Shown in pieces: positions 17,817-37,655 of a stretch of 64,000 bases of DNA; the stretch's first letter is position 1; every line of letters starts with the position of its first letter. Origin of the DNA: a bacterium (GTDB taxonomy: Bacteria > SAR324 > NAC60-12); assembly GCA_965205865.1 (NCBI GenBank), contig CBDBHR010000026.1:224997-288996 (forward strand), given 5' to 3'. Position numbers and translations under genes: made by a program. The notes under the pieces were generated by a model. It was not told the DNA's origin. It did no database searches and saw only the letters and a program-made list of their open reading frames with translations.

Positions 17817-18054
17817 TAAGTAAAGAATCCACCTTCTTAGAAGGTGATTTTGATGGGCCCCTGGAAGGGGCGGCTCGTGATCGTACTCGTGAGCCGTGCT
17901 CGTGAACGAAATGGCATCCCAGAGAATCCTGGATTCCCTGCCGTCTCTTCTATTCGGAATCTCCATCTCAAGGGAATCGGGAACGTTTCTATCGAGCACG
18001 TGCACGATTACGAACACGTGCACGTTTTTGGCAGAGCCGATTGTCTCTGACCAC
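17817..18054 (+). repeat. Dispersed element copy A carrying a small His-rich ORF (ATG 17853-18050)
   Basis: Same element at 20967-21210, 29756-29942 and 37439-37655; CTCGTG/CACGAG hexamer arms. Confidence 0.85.
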
Positions 18055-18110
18055 AACTAGGCGTCCCCGCCCAAAGGACGTGGTTTCATCAGATAAAATG
18101 AAAGGAAAAT

Positions 18111-18989
18111 ATGAAGTATTACAAACTCATTTCAGCAAATGGCAGCTCCGGATTTGCCGTGGAACAAGAGGAAGGCCTCCTCTCAGACCTGACTTCGGTG
18201 GATGAAAATCTGTCAGGCCTGGAAGTCATTGCTCGTGCCGCATCCCTCTCCGGAGTCAGCATAGACAAGATTGCAGAACGGATCATCGAGTCCGGCCAGC
18301 CCCAAATCCTGAAAATGGAGGAGGTCTTGGATGAAAAAAGCGATCTGCGACTGGCTCGTCCCTTCGACCCTCCGGAAGTGTGGGGTGCCGGCGCGACCTA
18401 TAACAAAGACCTGAGCAAGGCCTCAGAAAGTTACGTCAAGATCTATCAGGCAGAGCGCCCGATGCTTTTCTTCAAGGCAACGCCACAACGATGTGTCGGC
18501 CCCTTTGAGTCCGTTGGAATACGGGAGGACAGCGCGATCAACATCCCGGAGCCTGAGCTCGCCTTTGTGCTCTACCAGGGGGAGATCATTGGCTACACCA
18601 TCGCCAACGACATGAGCGCCGTGTCCCTCGAGGCAGAAAATACCTATTACCAGCCCCAGGCCAAAGTCTATAATCGTAGCTGCGCCATCGGGCCCTGCTT
18701 CGTGACTGCGGAATCGATCCAAACCCCTGAGGATCTGGATTTACGCTGCTCTACAAGACGTGACAACGAAGCAGTGTGGCACGGCGAGAGCTCCACTTCC
18801 CATTTGGCCCGCAGCTGCGCCCAACTGGCCGACTGGATCCAACGGCACAATTCCATGCCCGACTTGACGACGGTGCTCACCGGATGTGATTGTCACCCAC
18901 CGTCAGGATTCAGTCTTCAGGAAGGCGATGTGATCAGCATCACGATCGAGGGAATCGGGACGCTGGAAAACAACGTCATTGTCGTGTAG
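18111..18989 (+). CDS. Fumarylacetoacetate-hydrolase family protein (XylX/KdaD-like 2-keto-3-deoxy-pentonate dehydratase type), copy 1
   Basis: PEVWGAGATY, RPMLFFKA, PEPELA, GYTIANDMS, AKVYNRSCAIGP. Confidence 0.85.
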   Translation: MKYYKLISANGSSGFAVEQEEGLLSDLTSVDENLSGLEVIARAASLSGVSIDKIAERIIESGQPQILKMEEVLDEKSDLRLARPFDPPEVWGAGATYNKDLSKASESYVKIYQAERPMLFFKATPQRCVGPFESVGIREDSAINIPEPELAFVLYQGEIIGYTIANDMSAVSLEAENTYYQPQAKVYNRSCAIGPCFVTAESIQTPEDLDLRCSTRRDNEAVWHGESSTSHLARSCAQLADWIQRHNSMPDLTTVLTGCDCHPPSGFSLQEGDVISITIEGIGTLENNVIVV

Positions 18990-19015
18990 ATGGGGGTTGT
19001 TTGAACGGTTCACCT

Positions 19016-19272
19016 CTATTTTATCAGTTGATCGTATTCAGCATGCGTACCGATCCAAAACCAGATCAATCCTTCTTCCGTTTCCACTGCTACGGTTCGA
19101 TACTTTCTACCAACCCTGGCGGACCAATACCTTCCTACTTTTTTGAGATGTAATGAAGGATGATGAGGATCTGAATTGAGAATTTTAATTTTTTTTCGGC
19201 GAGTTTCCGGATGGATGAGTGAAGTTGATAATAACGATCCCAAAAAGAAGGATTTGCAAAGTGCTTTAGATC
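19016..19272 (-). pseudogene. RelE/ParE-like toxin, frameshifted in an A run
   Basis: KHFANPSFW...DPHHPSLHLKKVGRYWSARVG...WFWIGTHAEYD. Confidence 0.75.
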
Positions 19273-19466
19273 TCCTTGCATTTTCCCGCCTTAAAATCAG
19301 CAATAGCTTGATCAGCTAGTGAGTCCAGTTTTTCTGAGGCAACATCCTCTTCAAATTGTTGATCCCATACTTCTTGGTCGAATTTATCGAACCATTCTCT
19401 AAAATTTATTAAATCTGCTTTGGATAATTGTGAAACCGCTTTTTCAATTTCCTGAACGCTCTGCAT
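19266..19466 (-). CDS. Putative antitoxin, 66 aa
   Basis: Small acidic ORF (WDQQFEED...KLDSLADQA) overlapping the toxin start. Confidence 0.7.
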   Translation of the reverse strand: MQSVQEIEKAVSQLSKADLINFREWFDKFDQEVWDQQFEEDVASEKLDSLADQAIADFKAGKCKEI

Positions 19467-19587
19467 ATTGTTCCTTACATTTGTCGATGAAGCATTTTTT
19501 CCTCAAGTAGGGGAAATCATACCATGATCGCCTCAAAGATAAAACATGTCTATTAGTGAACGAACTTCCAAAATCATTGCCTGAAGG

Positions 19588-19790
19588 GCGTATTCCGCTC
19601 ACTTCGATCACTGATTCCGGCCACTTCGATCACCCCTTCGGAGCGAAGCGACGCTCTCTTTAAACAACTTTTAATTCATTGCATAGAATTGGTCAACTTG
19701 GATCTTTTTTTTCTGACCGACTCTCCTTTCAATTGAAGTTTATAGGCATTGCGCGCCACTCGGTCGAGGATGGCATCAGCCAGAGTGGGA
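19588..19790 (-). mobile_element. IS21-family right-end remnant with IstB C-terminus
   Basis: Reiterated GCGTATTCCG/TTCGATCAC terminal repeats; minus frame ADAILDRV...KKRSKLT. Confidence 0.7.
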
Positions 19791-20959
19791 TCTCCGATGA
19801 TCTGATGCCATTTTTCCACAGGAAGTCGAGCGGTAATAGATGATTTGGCTCATGAGTTTTTTTGCAGAGCCCATGTACTCCCGCAAGCGTAGCAGTTTCA
19901 AGGAGGAGCGCAGCCGTTTTTCCAAAAGTTCCAGGCTTGTCCGGACCCGCAGGTGATACCCCTTGGCTATGAGGACGTATTTGAGATATTCCTTGCGCCT
20001 CTTTTCTTCACGGGCACGCTTTATTTGCTCAACTTTCGAAGTGGAGGGCCTGAGCTTTTGGATGAGACGATACTGCTTTTTGAACTGCCTGAGGTTGAAC
20101 CGATATTGTCGCCAGCCCTCCAACTGGCAACTCCGTGAAAGCCGGGCGCATTCTTCAACCGTCTTGCGTACGGCGTCGAAGAGCAGGTTGACGTCGGTCG
20201 GATAATGCGCATTGGTTTCAACCACAAAGGAGTCGCAGCGTGCACGTAGCGCCTTGCTTGAATCATGAAGTTCAATCTTCTTCTCCGTGCGAATTCGGGT
20301 TGGCCCATCTTTTGGGGCGTTTTTTTTTACCAGCCCATGTCCGGCTTTGACAACCAACTGGTTGATCTCATCGAGAATCTCAGGTGTGAAAAGACGCAGG
20401 TTATCCTTGATCGTCTGCCGGTTGTACGTCATTTTGTCCTCCCACCCACCATGTCCGAGCATCTGCCGGATGGTGTCGTGATGGTTAGCCAACTCATGGA
20501 TGCGGTCGTAATCGCTGTTGAAACCCGGGCGCAGTACGCCAAGCACCAGAATCTTCCACTGCTCCATCCCGGGGACGCCCAAGACGGGGTCCGCTTTGCG
20601 ATGCCTGTCTTCGTTGCTCAGGCCCGGACCGCTTCGCGAGGGGATGACCCGTTCCGGAACCTTGAATACCGATGCGCGTAATGCTGGCGTGGCGTATATG
20701 TATTGCAAACCGCGAAGGATAGGGGGGATGTCATCACGGGATTTTAGATCCAACTCGATGGCGGCAACGTCGACTTCGCCGAACTTTATCTGGGGGTCAC
20801 GTATGGTGCGCATAAAATTTCAAATCTTGAAGATTTACGGAAAAACGAAAGAAACCAGTCCGAAGATACTGTAACTGCAACGATTGACCCTTCATGCGAG
20901 CTGGTACGCACTCGGGTTTTCTCAAATCTTCGCGTCACAAATATCAGTTTATCATCCTG
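19791..20959 (-). mobile_element. ISNCY/IS5-like element, 3'-truncated (transposase ORF 19776-20813)
   Basis: KSRDDIPPILRGLQYIY, RCDSFVVETNAHYPTD; second copy at 51151. Confidence 0.8.
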
Positions 20960-20966
20960 ATATAAT

Positions 20967-21210
20967 TAAGTAAAGAATCCACCTTCTTAGAAGGTGGTTT
21001 TGATGGGCCCCTGGAAGGGGCGACTCGTGATCGTACTCGTGAGCCGTGCTCGTGCTCATGAACGAAACGGCATCCCAGAGAATCCTGGATTCCCTGCCGT
21101 CTCTTCTATTCGGAATCCCCATCTCAAGGGAATCGGGAACGTTTCTATCGAGCACGTGTACGATTACGAACACGTGCACGTTTCTGGCAGAGCCGATTAT
21201 CTCTGACCAC
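20967..21210 (+). repeat. Dispersed His-rich-ORF element, solo copy B (ATG 21003-21206)
   Basis: Near-identical to 17817-18054 but with unrelated flanks. Confidence 0.85.
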
Positions 21211-21323
21211 GCCCACCTGGATTCTGTCAGTTCGATGGATGTGGTTGGAGCCCAATTAGCTATAATTGCAATAACGGAGCTGCACTCCAACGCATTTCCG
21301 ACAGAAACCTTGCGGTAGAAGCT

Positions 21324-22289
21324 ATGAAAACGTACATCATCCGGCGGGTCCTGCTGCTGATTCCGACCTTTTTTCTGGTCACCATTTTGGTGTTCCTCTC
21401 GGTGCGGTTCATACCCGGGGATGTCATAGACACGCTTTTGTACCGGATGGAGGATGGGGCAGGCGGCGGCGCCCACATCGACCGTGCGGGGCTCGAGCAG
21501 CGGCTGGGGCTGGACGTGCCGGTCCCCGTGCAGTATGGCCGCTGGATGGGCGGCATACTCCTGCGTGGCGACCTGGGCAAGCCTCTGTTGAAGGCGGAAC
21601 CGGTCGGTCAACTGATCGCCGGCCGGCTGCCGACCACCATCGAGCTGGGTCTGGTGTCGATCCTCATTGGTCTGCTGATCGGAGTGCCCATCGGGATTTA
21701 CTCTGCAATCAAGCAGAACATCCTGGGAGACTACGCCGCTCGCTCCTTCGCCATCTTCGGCCTGGCGACGCCCAACTTCTGGCTGGCCACCATCATCCTC
21801 ATCTTCCCGGCGATCTGGTGGGGATGGGCTCCCCCGCTGCGTCTGGTGCGCCTGAACGACGACTTCGTCGGCCACTTTGGCATCTTCATCGTGCCGGGTC
21901 TGATCCTCGGCACCTATCTGGCAGCGGGCACGATGCGGATGACCCGCACGATGATGCTGGAGGTGCTCCGGCAGGATTACATTCGCACAGCATGGGCCAA
22001 GGGCCTCAGAGAGCGCCTGGTCATCCTGCGGCACGCCATCAAGAACGCGCTGATCCCGGTGGTGACCTTGATTGGACTGCAGCTGCCCTTAGTGATCGGC
22101 GGTACGGTGATCATGGAGCAGATGTTCGCCATCCCGGGTCTGGGACGGCTGATGATCAATGCCTTCAATAATCGCGACTACCCGTTGATATAGGGGATCA
22201 ATCTCTTCTTTGCCTTCGCGGTCATGACGATTAATTTGTTCATCGACCTCCTCTACTCCTACCTGGATCCACGAATCCAATACAAGTAA
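21324..22289 (+). pseudogene. DppB-type permease with premature TAG at 22191
   Basis: Full permease sequence; reading continues in frame past the stop to DPRIQYK*. Confidence 0.85.
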
Positions 22290-22524
22290 GCGGACTCTCG
22301 ATGCGTGAAGTGACGCGACCCAAATCGAAACCGCATACCCTATAGCACTACACCTGGGGATAGCAGGAGGCATCGGTCGTTTGTTAAAGGGATCACTCAG
22401 TATGATGAAGAGAAGGAAGAATTTTTGAAAATTGAGAAGTTGCAACCAAGCAGTTAAAGGCGTAAGCTAAAATTAATCTGATGATGGAGGAATTCATAAC
22501 GCTCAAACACTGAAGAGACGATCC

Positions 22525-22800
22525 ATGACAACACTTTTACAACAGACCCTGGAGGAATTAGCTTCAACAGAAAAACAGCAAAAACGGTTGGTAGCTTATT
22601 TGAGAGAACACGAAGCAGAGATTTTAAATTACGTCAACAACGAGGTGGACACGCCTCCTCCTAAAACCCCCGATCCAAAAGAGACAGAAAATGACCCATG
22701 GGCAACCCTTGATATTGACAGTATCGCCGTTGAGACAGGGATTCCCGATCTTGCCAAAAATTATAAACATTATCTTTACGACCTTCCAAAACGCCCATGA
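22525..22800 (+). CDS. Putative antitoxin
   Basis: Small ORF with ATGA overlap to a PIN gene; ETGIPDLAKNYKHYLY. Confidence 0.7.
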   Translation: MTTLLQQTLEELASTEKQQKRLVAYLREHEAEILNYVNNEVDTPPPKTPDPKETENDPWATLDIDSIAVETGIPDLAKNYKHYLYDLPKRP

Positions 22801-23204
22801 GTCTTATCTTTGTTGACACTTCTGCACTTATTGCCCTGGGGAATAAACAGGATGACTTGCATGATAAAGCTAAAAACATCAGAAACGCCTTAATCCAAGC
22901 CCACCAGTCCTTTATTACAACAAACGCCATTTTACTCGAATTGTGCAATACGTTTAGTGCTCTGAATTTGAGAAATGGCGCCATCCAATTGGTGACGGCC
23001 ATCCGACAATCGCCGACCTGGTATTGTGTTGCGATTGATCCCCTGATGGACGCAGGGATTGAGTTATTCAAACAACGACTGGATAAAGAATGGAGTCTTG
23101 TAGATTGTCAGAGTATTTTAGTAGCTCAAACATATAAAATCACGGACATCTTCACCCATGACCACCATTTTGAGCAAGCCGGATTTAACATTCTGTTGAA
23201 ATAA
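22797..23204 (+). CDS. PIN-domain (VapC-like) toxin
   Basis: IFVDTSALIAL, TTNAILLE, WSLVDCQS, FTHDHHFEQAGF. Confidence 0.9.
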   Translation: MSLIFVDTSALIALGNKQDDLHDKAKNIRNALIQAHQSFITTNAILLELCNTFSALNLRNGAIQLVTAIRQSPTWYCVAIDPLMDAGIELFKQRLDKEWSLVDCQSILVAQTYKITDIFTHDHHFEQAGFNILLK

Positions 23205-23250
23205 TTATCGAGGCATGGAGAGGGAAAAGATCAAAGGAATGGCTAAAACC

Positions 23251-23325
23251 AGCGCGAGTTGGGCACGGCTGATCCATAAGATCTTCGAAGTGGATCCACT
23301 CTTATGTCCCAATTGTGGTAAAGAC
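23251..23325 (+). mobile_element. IS91-like transposase C-terminal remnant
   Basis: Reads SASWARLIHKIFEVDPLLCPNCG. Confidence 0.6.
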
Positions 23326-24292: not shown

Positions 24293-25287
24293 CTGGGAGC
24301 GAAAGTCATATTTTAGACACGTTTTGAAATATCGTCAGATGGATAGGATACTGAATGGGATAATGAAATCTACCAGGATTTTGCCATCATCGTTCTTTTG
24401 TGATAGTTTTCAAGAAATCGCCTTGGGCTGACGGTTTTTAAGAATTTCGGCTTGTTTTTCGTTTTCTCTTTTGATAGATTTCAAGAAAACGCCTTTGATT
24501 GAAGGGTTTATTTCAATTTTGCTAATATTTTAGCCGAAAGTCATGTAAAACATCATATCCTCACCAGAGGATTTTTAGAAACGGTCAACGGGGAATTGAA
24601 AAGTGCCCAAATTTTACTTTTATTTTAAATAAATCGGATATTGATTAAAAAAACATATTGACTTCCTGTTCTGGATATGAGAAAATTTGCCTTAAATTGT
24701 CGCTGTAGCGAAATAGCTTTTAGCCGTCTGCTGTCAGCTGTCAGTTTTTGAATCAAATTGATATACAGTTTTTTTGTAAGTGAAAACCGATAGCTGAGAA
24801 CAGATAGCCTTTAATGCTTGACAAACATTTGCAAGATTATACAGTATTTTATTCCAGGAACAGAAGAGCAATAATGAGATCCTTCGCTTTGCTCAGGATG
24901 ACATGAAAGGCTAATATTAACCCATTTCAAGTTTAAAAGCATCTTGACAATAAGGTGGATATGAGAGTAAACTCAAACACCCAGCTCCCAGCTCCCAGTA
25001 ATAAGTTCCAAGCAACAAGTCACAAGTCCCCAATCCCAAGTTCTACCCCCTTATATTATCTCGACCTCAGGGAGAGATCCATAAGATTCCTAGTTCCCAA
25101 TCCCAAGTTCCAAGAACAGAAGGGCAATCGGGAAAATCATGGGCGTCTGAGAACGTCCTTTATTCGTTCTTTTTTATAAGGAGAACACCATGCTGAAATC
25201 AGGAAAGCGGAATTGGTCCGCCAAACAAGGAAAGCTGGTCAAGCCTGCAGATAAACTTCACGTTAACAATCATATAAGGAGGTAGTT

Positions 25288-27315
25288 ATGAAACGAGCAT
25301 TATCTTTAGCAAGCGAGGTTCCTATGTATCTTAAGAAATTTCTGGCCCGCTTCGTTGGGCTGACCGTGGCAAACGTCGTGTCTGCTGCGAAAACCCGATT
25401 CGCCCCATGTCGGGTGAATCGTTCTCAAAACCCTCAATTTAAAGAGGTTCTTATGTATTGTATTTTAAAGAAACTTGTCGCCTCCATCGCGAGGCTGAAC
25501 CCGGTAGGCTCTTTGTCTGCTGTACAAAAGCTTGTCCTCGCAAAAGCGGGGATGCCACCCTTGTTGCTCACCTTCACCCTGATGGTGGCCGCCCTCTGGG
25601 TCAGTTCGGCCGTGGCGGCTGAGAAAGAGACGGTGTTCGACCCCGCCACCGGCCAGACGTGGACTGCGCATGAGTATGGCGGGACACTCACGTTTGGCAT
25701 GAAGCGCTATCCTAAGAGTGCTGACGTGTGGTACGCTGGTGGCTGGGCGCCTGTCCTCATCAGTGGTGTTAATGAGAAGCTAGCCTTCGCCGACTGGGGA
25801 CTATCCAGGGAAAAGACCGCTGACTTTTACCACTTTGTGACCCCAGCGATGACCACAGGGTGTCTGGCGGAAAGCTGGTCGCAGCCCGACCCCACAACGT
25901 TCATCTGGCACATCCGCCAGGGCGTTTTCTGGGACAATAAGGAGCCGGTGAACGGTCGTCAGTTCGATGCTTATGACGTCGAATGGAACTATCACCGCTA
26001 TTTGGGTCTGGGTGAATTCAGCGAACTCGGAATCAGCCCCGAAGTTGAGGATATAACGAATGGTCTCTCGTACGAATCGGTAACGGCCACCGATAAATGG
26101 ACGGTTGAGGTTAAGCTGGCGAAGCCTGACGCCGATGTGCTGGGGAAAATGCTACACACCTACCTTTTTGTGTACGCCCCCGAGGTAATCGAGAAATACG
26201 GCGACGCTCAGGATTGGAGGAACGCGGTCGGCACCGGGCCCTATCGACTGACTGAGTACGTCCAGGACAGCTCGGCAACCTGGGAGAAGAATCCTAACTA
26301 CTGGAAATACGACGAAAAATGGCCGGAGAACCGCCTGCCCTATACTGACAAGTTAGTGAGCCTGGCTATGCCAGAGTCAGCGACACGTATATCGGCAATG
26401 CGCACGGGTAAGATTGATATGCTGACTGAAGCCGGCGACGCTTATATACTGAGTCCCGACTATGTAGAGAGCCTCCAGAAGAGCAACCCTGAAATCGAGT
26501 TGTGGACCATTTATTCCATTGTCATTGACATTTTCGGTTTTAACCAGTCTTCGGAGCTCATGCAGGACGTCAATGTGCGCAAGGCACTGCAGATGGCAGT
26601 GGACAACGAGGCAATCAACAATTCCTTCTTTAAGGGTTTTGGAGATACAGCACTTTATGGGACAATAAATCAAGATTCTAAAGGGTGGAACTGGCCAGTT
26701 GAAGAATGGCCGGACGAGGTCAAGCAAGAATATACCTATAATCCGAAAAGGGCCGAGGAGATCCTTGATGCGGCTGGATATCCACGCCGCGCCGACGGCT
26801 ATAGATTCAAGGTCAAGCTAGGCAGTGCGGAAAAGTTTGAAACGACCTATGCAGAAATACTCGTGTCGTACTTCGATGCCATTGGCGTTGATAGCGAGAT
26901 TGAAGTGGTTACTGCGGCCGACAAGGGAGCTGCCCGAAGGGGGCCGACGATGAAGTGGGATTTACACAATTTTGGGTATTATAGCTGGTTCGCCCCCAAC
27001 AAGGATATATATTGTTTATCAAATTGCGCAGATGGTCATTGGCCCAAAACGAAGGACCAGCGAATGCACGACATAGTTGCCGCCATGAAAGTCGCTGCCA
27101 CCATGGAGGAGTCGATGAGCTTACATCGAGAGGCCGATGAGAAAACGGTAAGGGAGCACTATGCCATAATCAAACCCCAATCCCCTAAGTTTTACGTGAG
27201 CCAGCCGTGGGTCGAGGGTTATTTCGGTGAATCAGGTATGCAACGGGCCTCACGTAATACCTTCATGGCCCGCCTCTGGATTGATAGTGCGATGAAGAAA
27301 GAAATGGGGCATTAG
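25288..27315 (+). CDS. Family 5 extracellular solute-binding protein (DppA/OppA-like), copy 1; true start uncertain (25288, 25324, 25453 or 25552)
   Basis: Signal peptide ...AVA-AE, CLAESW, GTGPY, MRTGKID, NPKRAEEILDAAGY. Confidence 0.9.
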   Translation: MKRALSLASEVPMYLKKFLARFVGLTVANVVSAAKTRFAPCRVNRSQNPQFKEVLMYCILKKLVASIARLNPVGSLSAVQKLVLAKAGMPPLLLTFTLMVAALWVSSAVAAEKETVFDPATGQTWTAHEYGGTLTFGMKRYPKSADVWYAGGWAPVLISGVNEKLAFADWGLSREKTADFYHFVTPAMTTGCLAESWSQPDPTTFIWHIRQGVFWDNKEPVNGRQFDAYDVEWNYHRYLGLGEFSELGISPEVEDITNGLSYESVTATDKWTVEVKLAKPDADVLGKMLHTYLFVYAPEVIEKYGDAQDWRNAVGTGPYRLTEYVQDSSATWEKNPNYWKYDEKWPENRLPYTDKLVSLAMPESATRISAMRTGKIDMLTEAGDAYILSPDYVESLQKSNPEIELWTIYSIVIDIFGFNQSSELMQDVNVRKALQMAVDNEAINNSFFKGFGDTALYGTINQDSKGWNWPVEEWPDEVKQEYTYNPKRAEEILDAAGYPRRADGYRFKVKLGSAEKFETTYAEILVSYFDAIGVDSEIEVVTAADKGAARRGPTMKWDLHNFGYYSWFAPNKDIYCLSNCADGHWPKTKDQRMHDIVAAMKVAATMEESMSLHREADEKTVREHYAIIKPQSPKFYVSQPWVEGYFGESGMQRASRNTFMARLWIDSAMKKEMGH

Positions 27316-27376
27316 AAGCCATGTTAAAACCTTGTTTCCCCTCCCCTGGCGGGAGGGGTAGGGGAGGGGGTTTCCC

Positions 27377-28381
27377 ATGAGAACATATTTCATCAGGCGG
27401 TTATTGCTCATGATCCCGACCCTGTTTCTCCTGAGTATCCTGGTCTTTCTCTCGGTGCGCTTCATCCCCGGCGATGTCGTCGACATCATGGTAGCTAAGA
27501 TGCACGGATGGGGGGGTGGCTATACAAACCGTGAAGTTCTTGAGCGTGTGTTGGGATTAGACGTGCCTGTGCACGTACAGTACGGACGCTGGATAGGAGT
27601 GTTGCCGACCCCTGACTGGAAGACCGGTGAGTCTCAATTCAGCGGTATCCTCCAGGGCACCCTTGGCAAATCACTGTATGCCACCCATTTGTCGATAGAG
27701 GAACAGGTATTAGAGAGATTGCCAGTAACCCTTGAGCTGGGTCTCATGGCCATCGTGATCGGGTTGGTGATCGCGCTACCGGTGGGCATCTACTCGGCGA
27801 TTCGCCAGGATACTGCCACCGACTACCTGGGGCGCTCCATCGCCATCATCGGCCTGGCCACGCCTAACTTCTGGCTGGCAATTATGGTCATCCTCTACCC
27901 GGCAATCTGGTGGGGCTGGGCGCCATCGATAAGGTATATCCCTCTTGTCGAAAACCCGCTGGGGAATCTGGTGATGTTCCTCATTCCCAGCGTGATTCTG
28001 GGGACGGCCATGGCTGCCGAGACCATGCGGATGACACGCACCATGATGCTGGAGGTCTTAAGGCAGGACTACATCCGCACCGCCTGGTCCAAAGGGCTCA
28101 AGGAGCAGGTCGTGGTGATCCGGCACGCCATCAAGAATGCCCTCATCCCGATAGTTACCCTGATCGGCCTGCGCTTGCCCCTCCTGATCGGGGGCTCCGT
28201 TATCATGGAAGAAATATTTGTTCTGCCGGGGATCGGTCGTTTATACCTGGATGCAATCGAGAGCAGAGACTACCCGGCGGTCCAGGGAATCAACCTGTTT
28301 TTCGCCACCGGGGTAGTGGGGATCAATCTCTTCATCGACCTGATTTATGCTTTCTTGGACCCCAGGGTTCAGTATAAATAG
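27377..28381 (+). CDS. Peptide/nickel ABC permease, DppB-type
   Basis: LPVTLEL, MRMTRTMMLEVLRQDYIRTAWSKGL, HAIKNAL. Confidence 0.92.
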   Translation: MRTYFIRRLLLMIPTLFLLSILVFLSVRFIPGDVVDIMVAKMHGWGGGYTNREVLERVLGLDVPVHVQYGRWIGVLPTPDWKTGESQFSGILQGTLGKSLYATHLSIEEQVLERLPVTLELGLMAIVIGLVIALPVGIYSAIRQDTATDYLGRSIAIIGLATPNFWLAIMVILYPAIWWGWAPSIRYIPLVENPLGNLVMFLIPSVILGTAMAAETMRMTRTMMLEVLRQDYIRTAWSKGLKEQVVVIRHAIKNALIPIVTLIGLRLPLLIGGSVIMEEIFVLPGIGRLYLDAIESRDYPAVQGINLFFATGVVGINLFIDLIYAFLDPRVQYK

Positions 28382-28429
28382 TCGTTTTGCTACTGGTAAA
28401 TATGGGTTTGAGATTCGTATGTAGGAAGA

Positions 28430-28686
28430 AGTCCCTGAGGGACGAAAGAAAGTAGCCCAGCGATTTATCGCTGGGTACAAATGGCTCCTTCAAAGTCCCG
28501 GAGGGACGAAACAACAATGAGGTCTCATATCCCATGAAAACATAATCTTAAATATGATGAGTGTTATATTTTGCATTAATTCGCTCGACCGAAGAAGTGT
28601 CGTCTCTCTGGGACTAGCTGAGAGGAAGGGGGTTTCCTTACCCAGCAATGAATTGCTGGGCTATACCTTTTCGTCCCTCAGGGACT
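28430..28686. repeat. REP/MITE-like element with ~48-bp imperfect inverted arms; matching copy at 36113-36369
   Basis: AGTCCCTGAGGGACGAAA...CCCAGCGATTTATCGCTGGGTA with its inverted counterpart ending GTCCCTCAGGGACT. Confidence 0.8.
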
Positions 28687-28708
28687 GTATCATAGAAAAA
28701 TCGGGATC

Positions 28709-29675
28709 ATGAACAACACCCAAGAAACACCCCGCTATCCGTGAGCCCAAGCGACGAAGCCGGTTTGCGGCTTTCTTGATCAGGTTTCTCAAGGAGAAGC
28801 CACTCGGTACTGCCTGCGGGTTTATCATCTTGATCTTGATTTTAGTGGCAATCTTTGCCGATGCGCTGGCGCCTTATTCCCATAAGGAAGCACACCTGAT
28901 AGACAGGCTGCAGACCCCATCAGCCAAGTATCTGCTGGGTACCGACCACATAGGACGAGACTTACTCAGCCGCCTGATCTACGGGGCGCGTATCTCCGTA
29001 CTTGTCGGCCTGGCCGCGACCGCAATCAATGTGGTCTTCGCTGTCCTCATCGGCGGCATTTCAGGATTCCTCGAGGGTAAAGTGGATCTGGCGGTGCAGC
29101 GCTTTGTCGATGCCTGGATTGCCTTTCCGGGACTGCTGCTCTTGCTGACCCTCGTGTCCGTCGTGGGACAGGGGTTGCTCCAGATCATCCTGGTGCTGGG
29201 GATCGCCGGTGGAGTCGAAGGCTCCCGCGTCGTGCGGGGTGCGGTGATCGCCATTAAAGAGAATGACTATTTTCTGGCAGCCCAGGCCGTGGGCACCCCG
29301 ACCAGCCAAATCCTCAACCGTCATGTGCTGCCCAATATTATGGCACCCGTCATCATTATCTTCTCCATTAACATCGGGGGGGTGATTATGACTTTGGCTG
29401 CTCTGGGCTTCCTCGGATACGGTCTGCCACCCAACATTCCTGACTGGGGAGGGATGCTCAGCCGGGAAGGGCGCCGGTACATGGAGATGGCCCCCTGGCT
29501 GGCGCTCTGGCCCGGTCTTTGCTTGACGATTGCCGTCTACGCGCTCAACATGTTCGGCGACGCCATCAGAGACTTGCTCGATCCCCGGCTGCGGGGCGGA
29601 CAAGGCAGTTACGGCATCACGGGGAAACGCAAACGCGGATTCCTCACCCGACTGATCAACCCTTTCAGATGGTAA
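28709..29675 (+). CDS. DppC-type permease; +1 C near 28730 disrupts the start region (pseudogene or read error)
   Basis: Nearly identical to 36392-37357 apart from the C-run indel. Confidence 0.8.
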
Positions 29676-29755
29676 ACGCACCAAAAATTGTAAAAATACT
29701 TGTTTAACTTTTTCTACAATGTTAAATCTTCATAGGTGTTCGGGATTTAAAAAGA

Positions 29756-29942
29756 TAAGTAAAGAATCCACCTTCTTAGAAGGTGATTTTGATGGGCCCC
29801 TGGAAGGGGCGGCTCGTGAGCCGTGCTCGTGCTCGTGAACGAAATGGCATCCCAGAGAAACCTGGATTCCCTCTCAAGAGAATCGGGAACGTTTCTATCG
29901 AGCACGTGCACGATTTTGGCAGAGCCGATTGTCTCTGACCAC
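29756..29942 (+). repeat. Dispersed His-rich-ORF element copy C, the shortest (ATG 29792-29938)
   Basis: Lacks the 12-, 27- and 18-nt blocks; frame retained. Confidence 0.85.
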
Positions 29943-29998
29943 AACTAGGCGTCCCCGCCCAAAGGACGTTGTTTCATCAGATAAAATGAAAGGAAAAT

Positions 29999-30877
29999 AT
30001 GAAGTATTACAAAATCATTTCAGCAAATGGCAGCTCCCGATTTACCGTGGAACAAGAGGAAGGCCTCCTCGCAGACCTGACTTCGGTGGATGAAAATCTG
30101 TCAGACCTGGAAGTCATTGCTCGTGCCGCATCCCTCTCCGGAGTCAGCATAGACAAGATTGCAGAACGGATCATCGAGTCCGGCAAGCCCCCAATCCTGA
30201 AAATGGAGGAGGTCTTGGATGAAAAAAGCGATATGCGACTGGCTCGTCCCTTCGACCCTCCGGAAGTGTGGGGTGCCGGCGCGACCTATAACAAAGATCT
30301 GAGCAAGGCCTCGGAAAGTTACATCAAGATCTATCAGGCAGAGCGCCCGATGCTTTTCTTCAAGGCAACGCCACAACGATGTGTCGGCCCCTTTGTGTCC
30401 GTTGGAATCCGGGAGGACAGCGCGATCAACATCCCGGAGCCTGAGCTCGCCTTTGTACTCTACCAGGGGGAGATCATTGGCTACACTGTCGCCAACGACA
30501 TGAGCGCCGTGTCCCTTGAGGGAGAAAATACGTATTACCAGCCCCAGGCCAAAGTCTATAATCAGAGCTGCGCCATCGGGCCCTGCTTCGTGACTGCTGA
30601 ATCGATCAAAACCCCTGAGGACCTGGATTTACGCTGCTCTACAAGACGTGACAACGAAGTAGTGTGGTACGGCGAGAGCTCCACTTCCCATTTGGCCCGC
30701 AGTTGCGCCCAACTGGCCGACTGGATCCAACGGTCCAACTCCATGCCCGACTTGACGACGGTGCTCACCGGATGTGATTGTCATCCCCCGTCCGGATTCA
30801 CCCTTCAGCAAGGCGACGTGATCAGCATCACGATCGAGGGAATTGGGACGCTGGAAAACCCCGTCATTGTCGTGTAG
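29999..30877 (+). CDS. FAH-family protein, copy 2
   Basis: Highly similar to 18111-18989. Confidence 0.85.
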   Translation: MKYYKIISANGSSRFTVEQEEGLLADLTSVDENLSDLEVIARAASLSGVSIDKIAERIIESGKPPILKMEEVLDEKSDMRLARPFDPPEVWGAGATYNKDLSKASESYIKIYQAERPMLFFKATPQRCVGPFVSVGIREDSAINIPEPELAFVLYQGEIIGYTVANDMSAVSLEGENTYYQPQAKVYNQSCAIGPCFVTAESIKTPEDLDLRCSTRRDNEVVWYGESSTSHLARSCAQLADWIQRSNSMPDLTTVLTGCDCHPPSGFTLQQGDVISITIEGIGTLENPVIVV

Positions 30878-31041
30878 ATGGAGCTTGTTTGAGCGGTTCA
30901 CCGTTGACCGCTATTGCCTCATGAGGAACTCTACGCTAAGAACCTGTAATAGAGGCAGGATCCGATCATTTGGGGAGGATGATATTTTCAGCCTTCTTAA
31001 CCCACGCCATCAAATCGAAGGTGGAGAAGTATGAGGACATT

Positions 31042-31887: not shown

Positions 31888-31938
31888 ATATTCTTGAGAA
31901 AGGTCCTAAAAAACATTTTTATAAGGAGACATCTATCA

Positions 31939-32227: not shown

Positions 32228-32326
32228 GGGGCGAGAGAAAAAGGACAGAAAATTTTCTTCCCCACTTTGTCTAGTTTTTTACAATAGGGTTGAGAAACCA
32301 TTTGATTTTCTAATGGAGAAAAAGGG

Positions 32327-32432
32327 GTGGAGTAGCAGACACGCATCGCCCCTTTAGACCCGGCATAACCGTTAGTTCGCCCTCTTCAAACTGTGCGTAC
32401 AGTTGACGGTTCGGCTCCCGACGTACACGGCT
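32327..32432 (-). mobile_element. Group II intron 3'-end remnant (domains V and VI)
   Basis: Minus strand AGCCGTGTACG...GTACGCACAGTTTGAAGAGGG...CTACTCCAC. Confidence 0.75.
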
Positions 32433-32438
32433 TTAATG

Positions 32439-32634
32439 ACTCGACTTTGAACATTTTATTCAACTTTTGGGTTTAATAAAATCAATGTCTTACGAATCTT
32501 TATTGGAATTAATACAGGTCGTATCATCAAAAATGGAAAACAGTAACCTGTATTAATTTTTTACAAATTTTCAACCAATTGATATTATTGAATAATGAAA
32601 ATTAAAAGAATAAATCGAATGTCCAAAGTCCAGT
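32439..32634. mobile_element. Putative MITE, 196 bp, with IS701-like TIRs
   Basis: ACTCGACTTTGAACATT / AATGTCCAAAGTCCAGT, flanked by AATG on both sides. Confidence 0.6.
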
Positions 32635-32660
32635 AATGAATGAGTCGCCCTATTTAAAAA

Positions 32661-32727
32661 AAGTTTGACAATCATTTGCAAAGCGAGTATAAAAAAGTTT
32701 GACAATCAATTGCAAGGCGAGTATACA
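32661..32727 (+). promoter_or_regulatory. Two tandem sigma70-type promoters (34-bp duplication)
   Basis: TTGACA(32665)-N17-TATAAA and TTGACA(32699)-N17-TATACA. Confidence 0.75.
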
Positions 32728-32951
32728 GTATTGTTCCAGGAACGGAAGGGCAATAATGAGACCCTTCGCATTGCCGCTTTCGGTACACCTGTTTGGGCAA
32801 ATCGTCAGGATGAAATGAAAGTCTGAAATTAACCCGTTTCGAGTATAAAAAATCTTGATAATGAGGTGGATATGAGAGTAAGCTTAAACTCTAAGTGTAC
32901 AGGTTCATTGGGTTCTACCCCCTTACGTCATCTCGACCTCAAGGAGTTATT

Positions 32952-34946
32952 ATGATAGCGAAGAATCTATTCGCCCCCTTTGTGGGCCTGACCGTGGCAA
33001 ACGTCGTGTCTGCTGCGAAAACCCGATTCGCCCCATGTCGGGTGAATCGTTCTCAAAACCCTCAATTTAGAGAGGTTCTTATGTATTGTATTATAAAGAA
33101 ATTTGTCGCCTCCATCGCGAGGCTGAACCCGGCAGGCTCTTTGTCTGCTGTACAAAAGCTTGTCCTCGCAAAAGCGGGGATGCAACCCTTGTTGCTCACC
33201 TTCACCCTGATGGTGGCCGCCCTCTGGGTCAGCCCGGCAGCCGTGGCGGCTGAGAAAGAGACGGTGTTCGACCCCGCCACCGGCCAGACGTGGACTGCCC
33301 ATGAGTATGGCGGGACACTCACCTTTGGCACGAAGCGCTATCCTAAGAGTGCTGACGTGTGGTACGCTGGGGGCTGGGCGCCTCACTTCATCAGTGGTGT
33401 TAATGAGAAGCTAGCCTTCGCCGACTGGGGACTATCCAGGGATAAGACCGCTGACTTTTACATCGTTGTGAGCCCAGAGATGACCACAGGGTGTCTGGCG
33501 GAAAGCTGGTCGCAGCCCGACCCCACAACCTTCATCTGGCACATCCGCCAGGGCGTTTTCTGGGACAATAAGGAGCCGGTGAACGGTCGTCAGTTCGATG
33601 CTTATGACGTCGAATGGAACTATCACCGCTATTTGGGTCTGGGTGATTTCAGCGAACTCGGAATCAGCCCCGAAGTTGAGGATATAACTAATGGTCTCTC
33701 GTACGAATCGGTAACGGCCACCGATAAATGGACGGTTGTGGTTAAGCTGGCGAGGCCTGACGCCGATGTGTTAGGGAAAATGCTCCACACCTACACTTTT
33801 ATGTACGCCCCCGAGGTAATCGAGAAATACGGCGATGCTCAGGATTGGAGGAACGCGGTCGGCACCGGGCCCTATCGACTGACTGATCACGTCCAGGACA
33901 GCTCGGCAACCTGGGAGAAGAATCCTGACTACTGGAAATACGACGAAAAATGGCCGGAGAACCGCCTGCCCTATATTGACAAGTTGGTGAGCCTGGCTAT
34001 GCCAGAGTCAGCGACACGTACATCGGCAATGCGCACGGGTAAGATTGATATGCTGACTGAAACCGGCGACGCTTATATATTGAATCCCGACTATATGGAT
34101 GCCCTCCAGCGCACCAACCCTGAAATCGATGTGTTTCCCATTTATGTCGGGGTCTCGGACATTTACGGTTTTAACCAGTCTTCGGAGCTCATGCAGGACG
34201 TCAATGTGCGCAAGGCACTGCAGATGTCAGTGGACATCGAGACCATTAACACTTCCTTCTATAAGGGTTATGGAGATACAGCACCTTATGGGTTAATAAG
34301 TCAAGCTTCAAAAGGGTGGAACTGGCCATATGAAGACTGGCCCGAAGAGGTCAAGCAAGAATATACCTATAATCCGGAAAGGGCCGAGGAACTCCTTGAT
34401 GCGGCTGGGTATCCACGCGGCGCCGATGGCTATAGATTCAAGGTCAAGCTAGCCAGTTCGGAAAGGGTTGAAACGACCTATGGAGAAATACTCATGTCGT
34501 ACTTCGATGCCATTGGCGTCGATAGCGAGATTGAAGTGGTTACTGAGGCCGAGGCGGGAGCTGCCGCAAGGGGGCCGACGATGAAGTGGGATATACACAA
34601 TTTGGTGGGGTATAGCATGTTCGCCCCCTCCAAGGATATATATTGTTTATCAAATTGCGCAGATGGTCATTGGCCCAAAACGCAGGACCAGCGAATGCAC
34701 GACATAGTTGCCGCCATGAAAGTCGCTGCCACCATGGAGGAGTGGATGAGCTTACATCGAGAGGCCGATGAGAAAACGGTAAGGGAGCACTACGCCATAA
34801 TCAAACCCAAATCCCCTAAGTTTTACGTGAGCCAGCCGTGGGTCGAGGGTTATTTCGGTGAATCAGGTATGCAACGGGCCTCACGTAATACCTTCATGGC
34901 CCGCCTCTGGATTGATAGTGCGCTGAAGAAAGAAATGGGGCATTAG
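32952..34946 (+). CDS. Family 5 solute-binding protein, copy 2 (start uncertain)
   Basis: Close paralogue of 25288-27315. Confidence 0.9.
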   Translation: MIAKNLFAPFVGLTVANVVSAAKTRFAPCRVNRSQNPQFREVLMYCIIKKFVASIARLNPAGSLSAVQKLVLAKAGMQPLLLTFTLMVAALWVSPAAVAAEKETVFDPATGQTWTAHEYGGTLTFGTKRYPKSADVWYAGGWAPHFISGVNEKLAFADWGLSRDKTADFYIVVSPEMTTGCLAESWSQPDPTTFIWHIRQGVFWDNKEPVNGRQFDAYDVEWNYHRYLGLGDFSELGISPEVEDITNGLSYESVTATDKWTVVVKLARPDADVLGKMLHTYTFMYAPEVIEKYGDAQDWRNAVGTGPYRLTDHVQDSSATWEKNPDYWKYDEKWPENRLPYIDKLVSLAMPESATRTSAMRTGKIDMLTETGDAYILNPDYMDALQRTNPEIDVFPIYVGVSDIYGFNQSSELMQDVNVRKALQMSVDIETINTSFYKGYGDTAPYGLISQASKGWNWPYEDWPEEVKQEYTYNPERAEELLDAAGYPRGADGYRFKVKLASSERVETTYGEILMSYFDAIGVDSEIEVVTEAEAGAAARGPTMKWDIHNLVGYSMFAPSKDIYCLSNCADGHWPKTQDQRMHDIVAAMKVAATMEEWMSLHREADEKTVREHYAIIKPKSPKFYVSQPWVEGYFGESGMQRASRNTFMARLWIDSALKKEMGH

Positions 34947-35058
34947 TACTTATAGGACAAGTCTCCATTTGAAAAAGGGGATTCAGGGGGATTTTAAAAG
35001 CTTTGCCAACGAAATCCCCCTGCCCCCCTTTTCTTAAGTGGGGAAGGAGAAGGATTCC

Positions 35059-36064
35059 ATGAGAACCTATTTCATCAGGCGGTTGTTGCTCATGATCCCG
35101 ACCCTGTTTCTCCTGAGTATCCTGGTCTTTCTCTCGGTGCGCTTCATCCCCGGCGATGTCGTCGACATCATGGTAGCTAAGATGCACGGATGGGGGGGGT
35201 GGCTATACAAACCGTGAAGCTCTTGAGCGTGTGCTGGGGTTAGACGTGCCTGTGCACGTACAGTACGGACGCTGGATAGGAGTGTTGCCGACCCCTGACT
35301 GGAAGACCGGTAAGTCTCAATTCAGCGGTATCCTCCAGGGCACCCTTGGCAAATCACTGTATGCCACCCATTTGTCGATAGAGGAACAGGTATTAGAGAG
35401 ATTGCCAGTAACCCTTGAGTTGGGTCTCATGGCCATCGTGATCGGGTTGGTGATCGCGCTACCGGTGGGCATCTACTCGGCGATTCGCCAGGATACTGCC
35501 ACCGACTACCTGGGGCGCTCCATCGCCATCATCGGCCTGGCCACGCCTAACTTCTGGCTGGCAATTATGGTCATCCTCTACCCGGCAATCTGGTGGGGCT
35601 GGGCGCCATCGATAAAGTATATCCCTCTTGTCGAAGACCCGCTGGGGAATCTGGTGATGTTCCTCATTCCCAGCGTAATTCTGGGGACGGCCATGGCTGC
35701 CGAGACCATGCGGATGACACGCACCATGATGCTGGAGGTCTTAAGGCAGGACTACATCCGCACCGCCTGGTCCAAAGGGCTCAAGGAGCAGGTCGTGGTG
35801 ATCCGGCACGCCATCAAGAATGCCCTCATCCCGATAGTTACCCTGATCGGCCTGCGCTTGCCCCTCCTGATCGGGGGCTCCGTTATCATGGAAGAAATAT
35901 TTGTTCTGCCGGGGATCGGTCGTTTATACCTGGATGCAATCGAGAGCAGAGACTACCCGGCGGTCCAGGGAATCAACCTGTTTTTCGCCACCGGGGTAGT
36001 GGGGATCAATCTCTTCATCGACCTGATTTATGCTTTCTTGGACCCCAGGGTTCAGTATAAATAG
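35059..36064 (+). CDS. DppB-type permease copy with +1 G in a G run near 35195 (pseudogene or read error)
   Basis: Almost identical to 27377-28381; ATG at 35059. Confidence 0.8.
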
Positions 36065-36391
36065 TCGTTTTGCTACTGGTAAATATGGGTTTGAGATTCG
36101 TATGTAGGAAGAAGTCCCTGAGGGACGAAAGAAAGTAGCCCAGCGATTTATCGCTGGGTACAAATGGCTCCTTCAAAGTCCCGGAGGGACGAAACAACAA
36201 TGAGGTCTCATATCCCATGAAAACATAATCTTAAATATGATGAGTGTTATATTTTGCATTAATTCGCTCGACCGAAGAAGTGTCGTCTCTCTGGGACTAG
36301 CTGAGAGGAAGGGGGTTTCCTTACCCAGCAATGAATTGCTGGGCTATACCTTTTCGTCCCTCAGGGACTGTATCATAGAAAAATCGGGATC

Positions 36392-37357
36392 ATGAACAAC
36401 ACCCAAGAAACACCCGCTATCCGTGAGCCCAAGCGACGAAGCCGGTTTGCGGCTTTCTTGATCAGGTTTCTCAAGGAGAAGCCACTCGGTACTGCCTGCG
36501 GGTTTATCATCTTGATCTTGATTTTAGTGGCAATCTTTGCCGATGCGCTGGCGCCTTATTCCCATAAGGAAGCACACCTGATAGACAGGCTGCAGACCCC
36601 ATCAGCCAAGTATCTGCTGGGTACCGACCACATAGGACGAGACTTACTCAGCCGCCTGATCTACGGGGCGCGTATCTCCGTACTTGTCGGCCTGGCCGCG
36701 ACCGCAATCAATGTGGTCTTCGCTGTCCTCATCGGCGGCATTTCAGGATTCCTCGAGGGTAAAGTGGACCTGGCGGTGCAGCGCTTTGTCGATGCCTGGA
36801 TCGCCTTTCCGGGACTGCTGTTGTTGTTGACCCTCGTGTCCGTCGTGGGACAGGGGTTGCTCCAGATCATCCTGGTGCTGGGGATCGCCGGTGGAGTCGA
36901 AGGCTCCCGCGTCGTGCGGGGTGCGGTGATCGCCATTAAAGAGAATGACTATTTTCTGGCAGCCCAGGCCGTGGGCACCCCGACCAGCCAAATCCTCAAC
37001 CGTCATGTGCTGCCCAATATTATGGCACCCGTCATCATTATCTTCTCCATTAACATCGGGGGGGTGATTATGACTTTGGCTGCTCTGGGCTTCCTCGGCT
37101 ACGGTCTGCCACCCAACATTCCTGACTGGGGAGGGATGCTCAGCCGGGAAGGGCGCCGGTACATGGAGATGGCCCCCTGGCTGGCGCTCTGGCCCGGTCT
37201 TTGCTTGACGATTGCCGTCTACGCGCTCAACATGTTCGGCGACGCCATCAGAGACCTGCTCGATCCCCGGCTGCGGGGCGGACAAGGCAGTTACGGCATC
37301 ACGGGGAAACGCAAACGCGGATTCCTCGCCCGACTGATCAACCCTTTCAGATGGTAA
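36392..37357 (+). CDS. DppC-type permease
   Basis: LLGTDHIGRD, FPGLLLLL, RHVLPN, NMFGDAIRDLLDP. Confidence 0.92.
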   Translation: MNNTQETPAIREPKRRSRFAAFLIRFLKEKPLGTACGFIILILILVAIFADALAPYSHKEAHLIDRLQTPSAKYLLGTDHIGRDLLSRLIYGARISVLVGLAATAINVVFAVLIGGISGFLEGKVDLAVQRFVDAWIAFPGLLLLLTLVSVVGQGLLQIILVLGIAGGVEGSRVVRGAVIAIKENDYFLAAQAVGTPTSQILNRHVLPNIMAPVIIIFSINIGGVIMTLAALGFLGYGLPPNIPDWGGMLSREGRRYMEMAPWLALWPGLCLTIAVYALNMFGDAIRDLLDPRLRGGQGSYGITGKRKRGFLARLINPFRW

Positions 37358-37438
37358 GCGCACTAAAAAATTGTAAAAACACTTGCTTAAATTTTTCCAC
37401 AATGCTAAATCTTCATAGGTGTTCGGGATTTAAAAAGA

Positions 37439-37655
37439 TAAGTAAAGAATCCACCTTCTTAGAAGGTGATTTTGATGGGCCCCTGGAAGGGGCGGCTCGT
37501 GATCGTACTCGTAAGCCGTGCTCGTGCTCGTGAACGAAATGGCATCCCAGAGAAACCTGGATTCCCTCTCAAGAGAATCGGGAACGTTTCTATCGAGCAC
37601 GTGCACGATTACGAACACGTGCACGTTTTTGGCAGAGCCGATTGTCTCTGACCAC
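37439..37655 (+). repeat. Dispersed His-rich-ORF element copy D (ATG 37475-37651)
   Basis: Lacks only the 27-nt block. Confidence 0.85.

Follow-up and report, generated by a model that had tools for sequence, protein, structure and literature searches.

Four times in this stretch of 64,000 nucleotides (contig CBDBHR010000026.1, positions 224,997 to 288,996 of the forward strand; hereafter the window) a hairpin is followed by a short open reading frame (ORF) rich in histidine codons, and the question is whether this frame is a gene, a regulatory leader, or the accidental reading of a repeat. A first-pass annotation, made from the letters alone, had favoured a mobile regulatory leader, a peptide precursor or a coding MITE (miniature inverted-repeat transposable element). 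The analysis presented here indicates that the four copies probably represent a lineage-specific family of non-coding, modular, hairpin-rich intergenic repeats of uncultured marine sponge-associated bacteria, without any gene of their own.

Copies in the Window and in Related Genomes

The alignment of segments 17780–18080, 20930–21240, 29719–29970 and 37402–37700 placed the starts of the four copies at positions 17817, 20967, 29756 and 37439, as reported in the first-pass annotation. The same starts were supported by the 17-mer GGGCCCCTGGAAGGGGC of the second hairpin, which occurs four times in the window for 0.14 expected occurrences, and by an nhmmer profile giving E-values of 1e-76 to 1e-106 for the window copies and detecting no fifth copy in the window. 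The block common to the four copies opens with TAAGTAAAGAATCC, followed by the hairpin CACCTTC-TTA-GAAGGTG and then by GATGGGCCCCTGGAAGGGGC. The hairpin, holding the Shine–Dalgarno-like (SD-like) GAAGGT, had rightly been described in each copy, and the alignment also upheld the length differences between copies as blocks of 6, 12, 18 and 27 nt. The size of 187–244 bp and the location of the stop codon at the element edge had to be corrected, as the element extends approximately 45 nt past the ORF stop (GACCAC), reaching ...CGCCCAAAGGACGTGGTTTCATCAGATAAAAT.

All four copies are on the + strand. Copy 1 (17817–18099, 283 nt) has a fragmented OppC-like permease gene on one side and the FAH gene (ATG at 18111) on the other. 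Copy 2, the "solo" copy (20967–21248, the end being approximate), has a degenerate 3' tail, and its 5' end adjoins one end of a truncated ISNCY insertion sequence; an OppB-like permease gene (21324–22193) lies 75–115 nt downstream. Copy 3 (29756–29987) is the shortest of the four with 232 nt, being devoid of 12 nt in the left arm, 18 nt in the right arm and the 27-nt apical block, and copy 4 (37439–37700) measures 262 nt. The three FAH-linked copies are paralogues within segmental duplications of ATP-binding cassette (ABC) transporter/FAH cassettes. Copies 3 and 4 show a 7,682-bp spacing, with flanks 98.5% identical. The window therefore holds two independent sites, not four. In addition, the flank of the solo copy which had been called unrelated corresponds on its upstream side to a truncated ISNCY transposase gene (19776–20813, minus strand; NF033593, E = 1.6e-61).

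In the closed chromosome OZ242383.1 (4.26 Mb), a metagenome-assembled genome related to, but distinct from, that from which the window comes, the DNA 20-mer GATGGGCCCCTGGAAGGGGC had six matches (one genome per species was scanned). Four were full elements (L001, L002, L007 and L009), and two (L003 and L006) consisted of a 26-nt module only. These matches constitute the only sample chosen without regard to ORF. A protein search with the 67-amino-acid (aa) frame returned 25 clusters, all from ENA/NCBI marine assemblies, whose contigs provided loci L010–L038. With the nhmmer profile, 31 full copies, 22 of them unique, were counted in the window and loci L001–L033, and five more copies, one of them truncated, in L034–L038. 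The RNA runs holding the locus were labelled sponge metagenome, and one locus came from a Tara sample. There was no match in JGI metagenome contigs scanned with TCTCAAGRGAATCGGGAACGNTTC and TTGATGGGCCCCTGGAAGGGGC, in the viral contigs scanned, in phage records searched by BLAST, or, below E 0.3, in Rfam 15 by gathering and E-value scans. In sponge metagenome contigs the unitig depth inside the element reached approximately 10 times that of the flank, therefore suggesting, as a rough estimate, a copy number in the tens per genome equivalent.

The Histidine-Rich Frame

Starting from ATGGGCCCC, translation gave the frames of 65, 67, 48 and 58 aa described earlier (17853–18050, 21003–21206, 29792–29938 and 37475–37651, + strand), none of which is judged to be a gene. 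Frameshifts or stops in further copies had been named beforehand as the observation that would speak against a coding frame, and they were found in three of the four full elements of OZ242383.1: a 32-nt deletion in L001, a 1-nt deletion in L002 and, in L007, a 13-nt insertion leading to a stop at codon 24. L009 alone stays in frame. Public sponge-metagenome DNA contigs covering the element showed 6-nt slippage events together with indels of 7, 1, 2, 2 and 1 nt, and contigs of the same type showed internal element deletions of 85, 92, 93 and 58/59 nt. Apart from hexamer slippage, the events in multiples of three were 27, 93 and one of 21 nt, the others measuring 1, 1, 1, 2, 2, 7, 13, 32, 58/59, 85 and 92 nt; there is no bias toward multiples of three.

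The substitutions were distributed in the 22 unique copies with 11, 22 and 21 variants at codon positions 1, 2 and 3, respectively. Selection on the frame, which the first-pass annotation had put forward as a check, was at the neutral level, with 17 synonymous and 37 non-synonymous variants (31% synonymous for a neutral expectation of 25–32%): no purifying selection acts on the frame. As these 22 copies were mostly found via ORFs, the sample favours the coding hypothesis, yet the variants are neutral. The "His motif" switches between V, E and G according to the central base of CACGTG/CACGAG/CACGGG. ATT replaces the start ATG in the subfamily L017–22, where another ATG is present 3 nt upstream, TTT does so in one contig variant, and the SD-like GAAGGTG is one arm of hairpin 1, with a stability of -9 to -12 kcal/mol.

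The ORF stretch contains zero to three stops in each of the six frames, the opposite-strand -1 frame being fully open in all four copies, and an equally long open stretch was present in 403 of 2000 shuffles (20%) of the 204-nt stretch. The frame open in the window is no more than chance gives. No Pfam family was recorded for any of the 25 protein clusters. The histidine-rich frame is a by-product that arises when the (CACGAG/CACGTG)n hexamers are read as codons, and the window copies keep it open only because slippage of the hexamers changes their length by multiples of six. The caveat of the first-pass annotation that hexamer repeats keep frame by themselves was correct, and is the whole explanation. 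A coding frame, a peptide precursor and an upstream ORF (uORF) or metal-/His-responsive leader are all contradicted by the frameshifts, the stop, the indels that are not multiples of three, the neutral substitutions, the loss or displacement of the start codon, the location of the SD-like arm within a hairpin and the antisense placement of the element relative to its neighbours at several sites.

Structure of the Element

The element is a modular, hairpin-rich repeat of approximately 230–365 bp. The 5' terminus is AT-rich (TAAnTAAAG), and the termini were taken as TAAAGAATCCACC... (5') and ...CAGATAAAAT (3'). Hairpin 1, an unstranded feature at 20979–20997 (17830–17846 in copy 1), has the sequence CCACCTTC-TTA-GAAGGTGG. 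With an A-tract upstream and a T-tract downstream, it scored terminator-like on both strands, so that the element carries a terminator-like module at one end. The loop is TTA or, in relatives, two to four tandem copies of the 14-nt unit GACTAGCCGTCCGC (range 0–4). The linker GTTTTGAT separates hairpin 1 from hairpin 2 (21007–21021, + strand; 17857–17871 in copy 1), GCCCC-TGGAA-GGGGC, into which the claimed start codon falls in part. Directly after hairpin 2 comes a dinucleotide read as GG, GT, GA, CT or TC, which varies more than any other spot of the element. The long imperfect hairpin (21024–21184, + strand) is the origin of the "His-rich" codons, with a left arm made of (CTCGTG)n and a 13-mer, a right arm made of (CACGAG/CACGTG)n, and an apex of nested small hairpins including the 27-nt block. 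The 3' modules, at 18030–18099 (+ strand) in copy 1, are the GGCAGAG..CTCTGaCC hairpin, ACTAGGCGTCCCC, the GGCGTCC..GGACGTG hairpin and the conserved end TTTCATCAGATAAAAT. At a second variable-repeat site the 15-nt unit ACTAGGCTGGGCCGC is present zero to two times or is replaced by a short form, ACTAGGCGTCCCC, and the last module is a hairpin CCACG..CGTGG, then TTTcATCAGATAAAAT.

The minimum free energy of the whole element is -95.7 kcal/mol (z = -5.5 for the + strand and -4.2 for the - strand). The 12- and 18-nt deletions of copy 3 remove both strands of one stem section, and every paired base of the missing left segment pairs inside the missing right segment. A compensatory change was seen in hairpin 1 (C-G to T-A in L003/L006), and hairpin 2 shows a G-C to T-A change in the contig variant TCCCC..GGGGA. 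Two indels and not a single substitution separate copy 3 from copy 4, while 15 substitutions are found in 1 kb of the upstream flank, and alleles L010–L016, otherwise identical, differ in the number of 14-nt units. These comparisons show that the repeat-built parts change length faster than point substitutions accumulate.

In L003 (5937–5990) and L006 (53–110), only a module sharing 26 nt exactly with the element is present. It is composed of a variant hairpin 1 with the linker, hairpin 2 and then TTTT(C), and it ends two paralogous sigma54-activator genes. It is either a solo module or a terminator ancestral to the 5' end of the element; in L031 this type of variant module is joined to an element body. 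A plasmid BLAST gave borderline matches of the first approximately 54 nt of the element to gene-end terminators of the gamma-proteobacteria E. coli, Photobacterium and Pseudoalteromonas. Those of E. coli plasmid CP057501.1 (L039, 2500–2553) and Photobacterium pDA100 (L040, 2500–2560) are tandem hairpins after genes, 82–84% identical, in which the matched part is AAAGAATCCACC...GGTGG followed by a GC hairpin, with borderline E-values. They likely reflect convergence on the intrinsic-terminator shape, not homology.

Filled and Empty Sites

Sponge-metagenome DNA contigs were aligned to the window between positions 37150 and 37950, around the FAH site of copy 4. Contig X1 joins 37439 to 37697, skipping 257 nt, at a depth of 12 compared to approximately 42, and contig X5 joins 37439|TAAA|37701, skipping 261 nt. 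The empty alleles read ...TTTAAAAAGAT-AAAT-GAAAGGAAAATATG and ...GAT-TAAA-GAAAGG..., respectively. In the filled site, ...AAAAAGAT is followed by the element, AAGTAAAG...CATCAGATA, and then by AAATGAAAGG, with AGATAA at both junctions. The contigs show that the FAH site exists in a filled and an empty state; exact-protein look-ups of the flanking permease and of the FAH protein returned no empty site.

Across sites the 5' end was always TAAAG, even beside the GC-rich flanks of L037 and L038. The 3' end was GATAAAAT, then nAAA(g/t) at most sites, which echoes the 5' TAAAG, whose left copy never varies. The mobile, MITE-like part of the first-pass annotation was borne out by the multiplicity of copies, by the many unrelated intergenic contexts and by the filled and empty FAH alleles.

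The neighbouring ISNCY, considered as a parent insertion sequence (IS), showed no significant end similarity: its end shares only TAAGTAAAGA with the element, and the alignment score is in the range of shuffles. An integron attC site was considered and dropped, no R'/R'' core sites being visible by eye and no integrase being seen. No Y1_Tnp (RAYT) gene was found among the genes called in the 38 loci of approximately 6 kb each.

Genomic Contexts

At least 12 contexts with different flanks were distinguished, all of them intergenic and with the element in either orientation. The element is co-oriented with both neighbours between OppC and FAH (the three window copies and L001). In L010–16, also co-oriented, a sigma54 enhancer-binding activator gene is followed by the element, by putative palindromic activator sites and by SBP_bac_5, an arrangement found in L031–32 with a variant hairpin 1. 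In L034–35 the co-oriented order is activator, approximately 470 nt, element and SBP_bac_1 start. In L017–22 the element is co-oriented between OppB and OppC, the OppB stop codon being inside the TAAAG end of the element; the OppB paralogue in the window also ends with ...QYK and a stop. Its orientation is antisense to both neighbouring genes where it separates two epimerase genes (L002), and likewise between a sugar-type ABC permease gene and a 103-aa ABM-like gene (L007/28/30, L009/26/27, L029). The order ISNCY end, element, OppB-like gene is that of the solo window copy and of L023–25. The remaining contexts are located between DUF4258 and a 262-aa gene (L036), between SBP_bac_1 on the minus strand and an ISL3 transposase (L037), and after the end of an OpuAC-type ABC operon, where a scrambled, decayed copy faces a convergent gene (L038). 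As neither orientation nor position is fixed, a leader or riboswitch is excluded. ABC-transporter genes or sigma54 activators adjoin approximately 11 of the 13 contexts, and four contexts follow sigma54 activators; this striking association is confounded by the duplication of cassettes and by the manner in which the loci had been obtained.

Several observations were made beside the element. Just downstream of it and before SBP_bac_5, perfect palindromes are present in L010–L016 (approximately 3275–3320) and L031/L032 (approximately 3232–3280), TGAGACATATGTCTCA, and GGGGCATATCTGCCCC twice; they are likely activator binding sites. In L034/L035 (2734–2840) a 33-nt unit in approximately 2.7 tandem copies directly follows the 3' end of the element, before the true gene start, and contains the ribosome-binding site and start of the substrate-binding protein (SBP) gene (TAAAAATTATGAGGTTGAAATGGTTAAATTAAT). 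In the window, SBP_bac_5/OppB/OppC/FAH cassettes are duplicated several times (16500–19200, 25200–31000 and 32900–38800, and also 44000–49400 and 58400–59100). In the first cassette, OppC is broken up into three ORFs (16767–17736) and is probably a pseudogene. The last approximately 300 nt at the ISNCY end (20650–20976) show 8–35 times the single-copy depth in sponge metagenomes, and other copies of this end region run into different sequence past position 20976.

Proposed Mode of Spread and Action

We propose that the element is a non-autonomous mobile element, which would be spread by some enzyme or through recombination involving its AT-rich termini (TAAAG... / ...CAGATAAAAT nAAAg). Between co-directional genes it would be transcribed with them, and its effect would be exerted at the RNA or transcription level; one sponge metatranscriptome contig passes through a copy into different flanking sequence. 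Hairpin 1 may act as a leaky intrinsic terminator or a 3'-end protecting structure in either orientation, the long hairpin may constitute a structured spacer, and the hairpins together could alter the relative expression of the flanking cistrons, mostly ABC-transporter genes.

A number of points weigh against this interpretation. Terminal inverted repeats (TIRs) are not clear: the only match is subterminal, 9/12 between GAATCCACCTTC and the reverse complement of GGACGTGGTTTC, which are halves of two similar hairpins. No target-site duplication (TSD) common to all sites and no parent transposase were found, and many copies may have spread passively with the duplicated transporter cassettes. The association with ABC-transporter genes and sigma54 activators may mean a dedicated function rather than selfish spread. 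Most of the fetched loci (L010–L038) were found via called ORFs and are biased to in-frame copies, and maybe in context. In the 22 unique copies RNAalifold revealed no double compensatory changes in the long hairpin, single changes mostly breaking pairs. The sequences are too alike (85–99%) for a real covariation test of this hairpin, and the pair-breaking changes are as expected for young, decaying copies. The metatranscriptome contig that speaks for transcription is single, of low depth and unstranded, with possible DNA carry-over. Termination or mRNA stabilisation is predicted from sequence only, and hairpin 1 cannot be an efficient terminator in L017–L022 (six assemblies), because intact OppB and OppC flank the element there.

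A bolder version of this proposal, which we consider unlikely, is that of a new type of non-autonomous mobile unit, without TIRs or a regular TSD, homing to AT-rich stop-codon/ribosome-binding-site junctions (TAAAG-like) of sponge-symbiont ABC-transporter operons. The two variable-repeat sites and the slippery hexamer stem would then allow a heritable tuning of how strongly an intercistronic terminator or RNA barrier acts.

Alternative Explanations

An unlikely alternative is that the element is not mobile at all but an old terminator-containing spacer, which would have grown by slippage and been propagated only when paralogous transporter cassettes underwent segmental duplication or gene conversion, the "empty" alleles being deletions. 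Three of the four window copies, as well as L007/L009/L029, are indeed paralogous cassettes, the module of hairpin 1' and hairpin 2 stands alone as a gene terminator in L003/L006, neither TIRs, TSD nor transposase was found, and the short direct repeats (AGATAA) around the FAH copy could mediate deletion. However, the positions occupied by the element are not homologous: it follows OppB or OppC, precedes OppB or members of two different SBP families, separates epimerases or adjoins DUF4258. Its sharp ends (TAAAG... / ...GATAAAAT) are kept even against the GC-rich flanks of L037 and L038, and the AAAT and TAAA of the empty alleles are not the expected product of recombination between flanking repeats.

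Rather improbable is a dedicated role in the cis-regulation of sigma54-controlled ABC-transporter operons, for instance as an attenuator or insulator at the RNA or DNA level whose variable repeats would tune expression. The contact with ABC-transporter genes in approximately 11 of 13 contexts and the location of four contexts after sigma54 enhancer-binding activators would fit such a role, as would the strong hairpins with a terminator-like hairpin 1 and the variation in repeat number between otherwise identical alleles. Relative to promoters, however, the element has no consistent position: upstream of the activator palindromes in L010–16/L031, it is found just before the SBP start codon in L034/35. 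Other copies separate permease cistrons or epimerase genes or come after the last gene, and both orientations occur. Furthermore, the FAH locus exists without the element, no Rfam match was obtained, and duplicated transporter cassettes are abundant in these genomes, inflating the association. Compared with the established sigma54 promoter consensus, the sole sigma54-like stretch, TGGCAGAGCCGATTGTC, is mis-spaced and without the GC of the -12 element, the position expected for this GC varying between copies (TTAT or TTGT). A sigma54 promoter inside the element is ruled out by this spacing and by the variable -12 GC position.

Very unlikely, too, is a small-RNA gene in many copies, on either strand, that hairpin 1 would terminate. 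The terminator-like character of hairpin 1 and its T-run on both strands, the stable fold of both strands and the presence of a copy in one RNA-derived contig would be in its favour. However, no conserved promoter-like site is present within or beside the element, and the + strand has the terminator-like hairpin at its 5' end instead of its 3' end. Decay, scrambling and large internal losses are seen among the copies, most single substitutions disrupt predicted pairs, and the RNA contig runs into the flank, as mRNA read-through would.

Finally, a real small histidine-rich protein, or a translated uORF leader sensing metal or histidine and regulating the transporter or FAH genes, can hardly be maintained: the four in-frame window copies, the full frame kept in 18 of the 25 gene-finder protein clusters, the SD-like GAAGGTG 6–7 nt before the ATG and the adjoining peptide/nickel-type ABC transporter genes are set against three frameshifted or stopped copies among the four found independently of ORFs, the common indels in contigs that are not multiples of three, a codon position 2 as variable as position 3 with V/E/G swaps in the "His motif", a non-conserved ATG, an SD-like sequence buried in hairpin 1, an ORF length within chance, 25 out of 25 clusters devoid of a Pfam family, and an element that runs antisense to the adjoining genes at several sites and is lacking at some FAH loci.

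Comparison with Known Repeat Families

The repeats can be filed as a new family of the known kind "small structured intergenic repeats", and not as a member of any named family. In organisation they are closest to pneumococcal BOX and SPRITE, and in behaviour to MITEs. The BOX repeats of Streptococcus pneumoniae (boxA-boxB(n)-boxC) have variable internal units, stable folds and no transposase, are co-transcribed, and contain some ORFs (PMC3184786; PMC10969869). The present element is similarly a modular intergenic repeat, in which the 14-nt unit (0–4), the 15-nt unit (0–2) and the hexamer/13-mer arms vary, but the resemblance is functional only, with no evidence of sequence relationship and a host belonging to an unrelated, uncultured lineage. 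Its variable units are also much shorter than boxB, which measures 45 nt, and are placed in the hairpin loop and arms. SPRITE is a dispersed repeat resembling an intrinsic terminator (PMC3184786; PMC10969869). Hairpin 1 with its A/T tracts is terminator-like on both strands, again a resemblance in function only. In contrast to SPRITE, the terminator-like hairpin represents only the first approximately 40 nt of a 230–365-nt element, which is also present inside intact operons, separating cistrons that full termination would harm.

The ERIC/IRU, Correia (NEMIS), RUP and Nezha MITEs form long stem-loops at the RNA level and contain chance ORFs (Delihas 2007, PMC2759123), and sites both with and without a copy are described (PMC3184786). 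Like them, the element is small, multi-copy, intergenic, in either orientation and without a transposase gene, has long stem-loops and chance ORFs, and its FAH site is filled or empty. The defining TIRs and target-site duplications are, however, not apparent, and no IS whose ends match was identified as a parent. REP/BIME sequences lie between cistrons in malE-malF and hisJ-hisQ. The REP/BIME/REPIN sequences are GC-rich palindromic mosaics, often between ABC-transporter cistrons, altering mRNA stability (PMC3184786). The element also shows GC-rich palindromic units in mosaic between such cistrons, but its units are longer and heterogeneous, and no RAYT gene was seen in the fetched loci. Precedents for an action as leaky terminator, 3'-end barrier or spacer exist in REP/BIME, ERIC, BOX and SPRITE (PMC3184786, PMC10969869). 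The Rickettsia palindromic elements (RPE), palindromic repeats readable as peptide, are the precedent for a "coding MITE" (PMC10969869). RPEs are located in frame inside protein genes and are translated, whereas the copies of the present element are all intergenic and the frame is not maintained.

Other Features of the Window

Matches to Acido-Lenti-1 (RF01687) were observed as inverted pairs approximately 165 nt apart, 28430–28475(-)/28641–28686(+) and 36113–36158(-)/36324–36369(+), within the spacer that separates OppB from OppC in two paralogous cassettes. Rather than free-standing small-RNA genes, they resemble the inverted termini of an approximately 260-nt MITE-like insertion. Group II intron domain 1-4 matches (RF02005, 139–159 bits) are located at 14047–14269, 14750–15002 and 61333–61555, two of them being 700 nt apart. 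A PIN-domain gene (22797–23204) overlaps the end of a 91-aa ORF (22525–22800), in a VapBC-type toxin-antitoxin layout.

Significance of the Repeat Family

The hypothetical-protein calls in at least 25 public sponge-metagenome clusters are almost certainly spurious. The main value of the present result is to clear up this annotation problem, as repeat-built hairpins can mimic conserved, indel-tolerant ORFs. With its filled and empty sites and its strain-variable repeat numbers, the element is a marker of genome plasticity in the symbiont lineage, and its location suggests that it is placed where the expression ratio of ABC-transporter cistrons could change. If the hypothesis of a heritably tunable mobile unit were true, nutrient-uptake operons would be under a contingency-type control in this uncultured lineage, which lives in association with a host.

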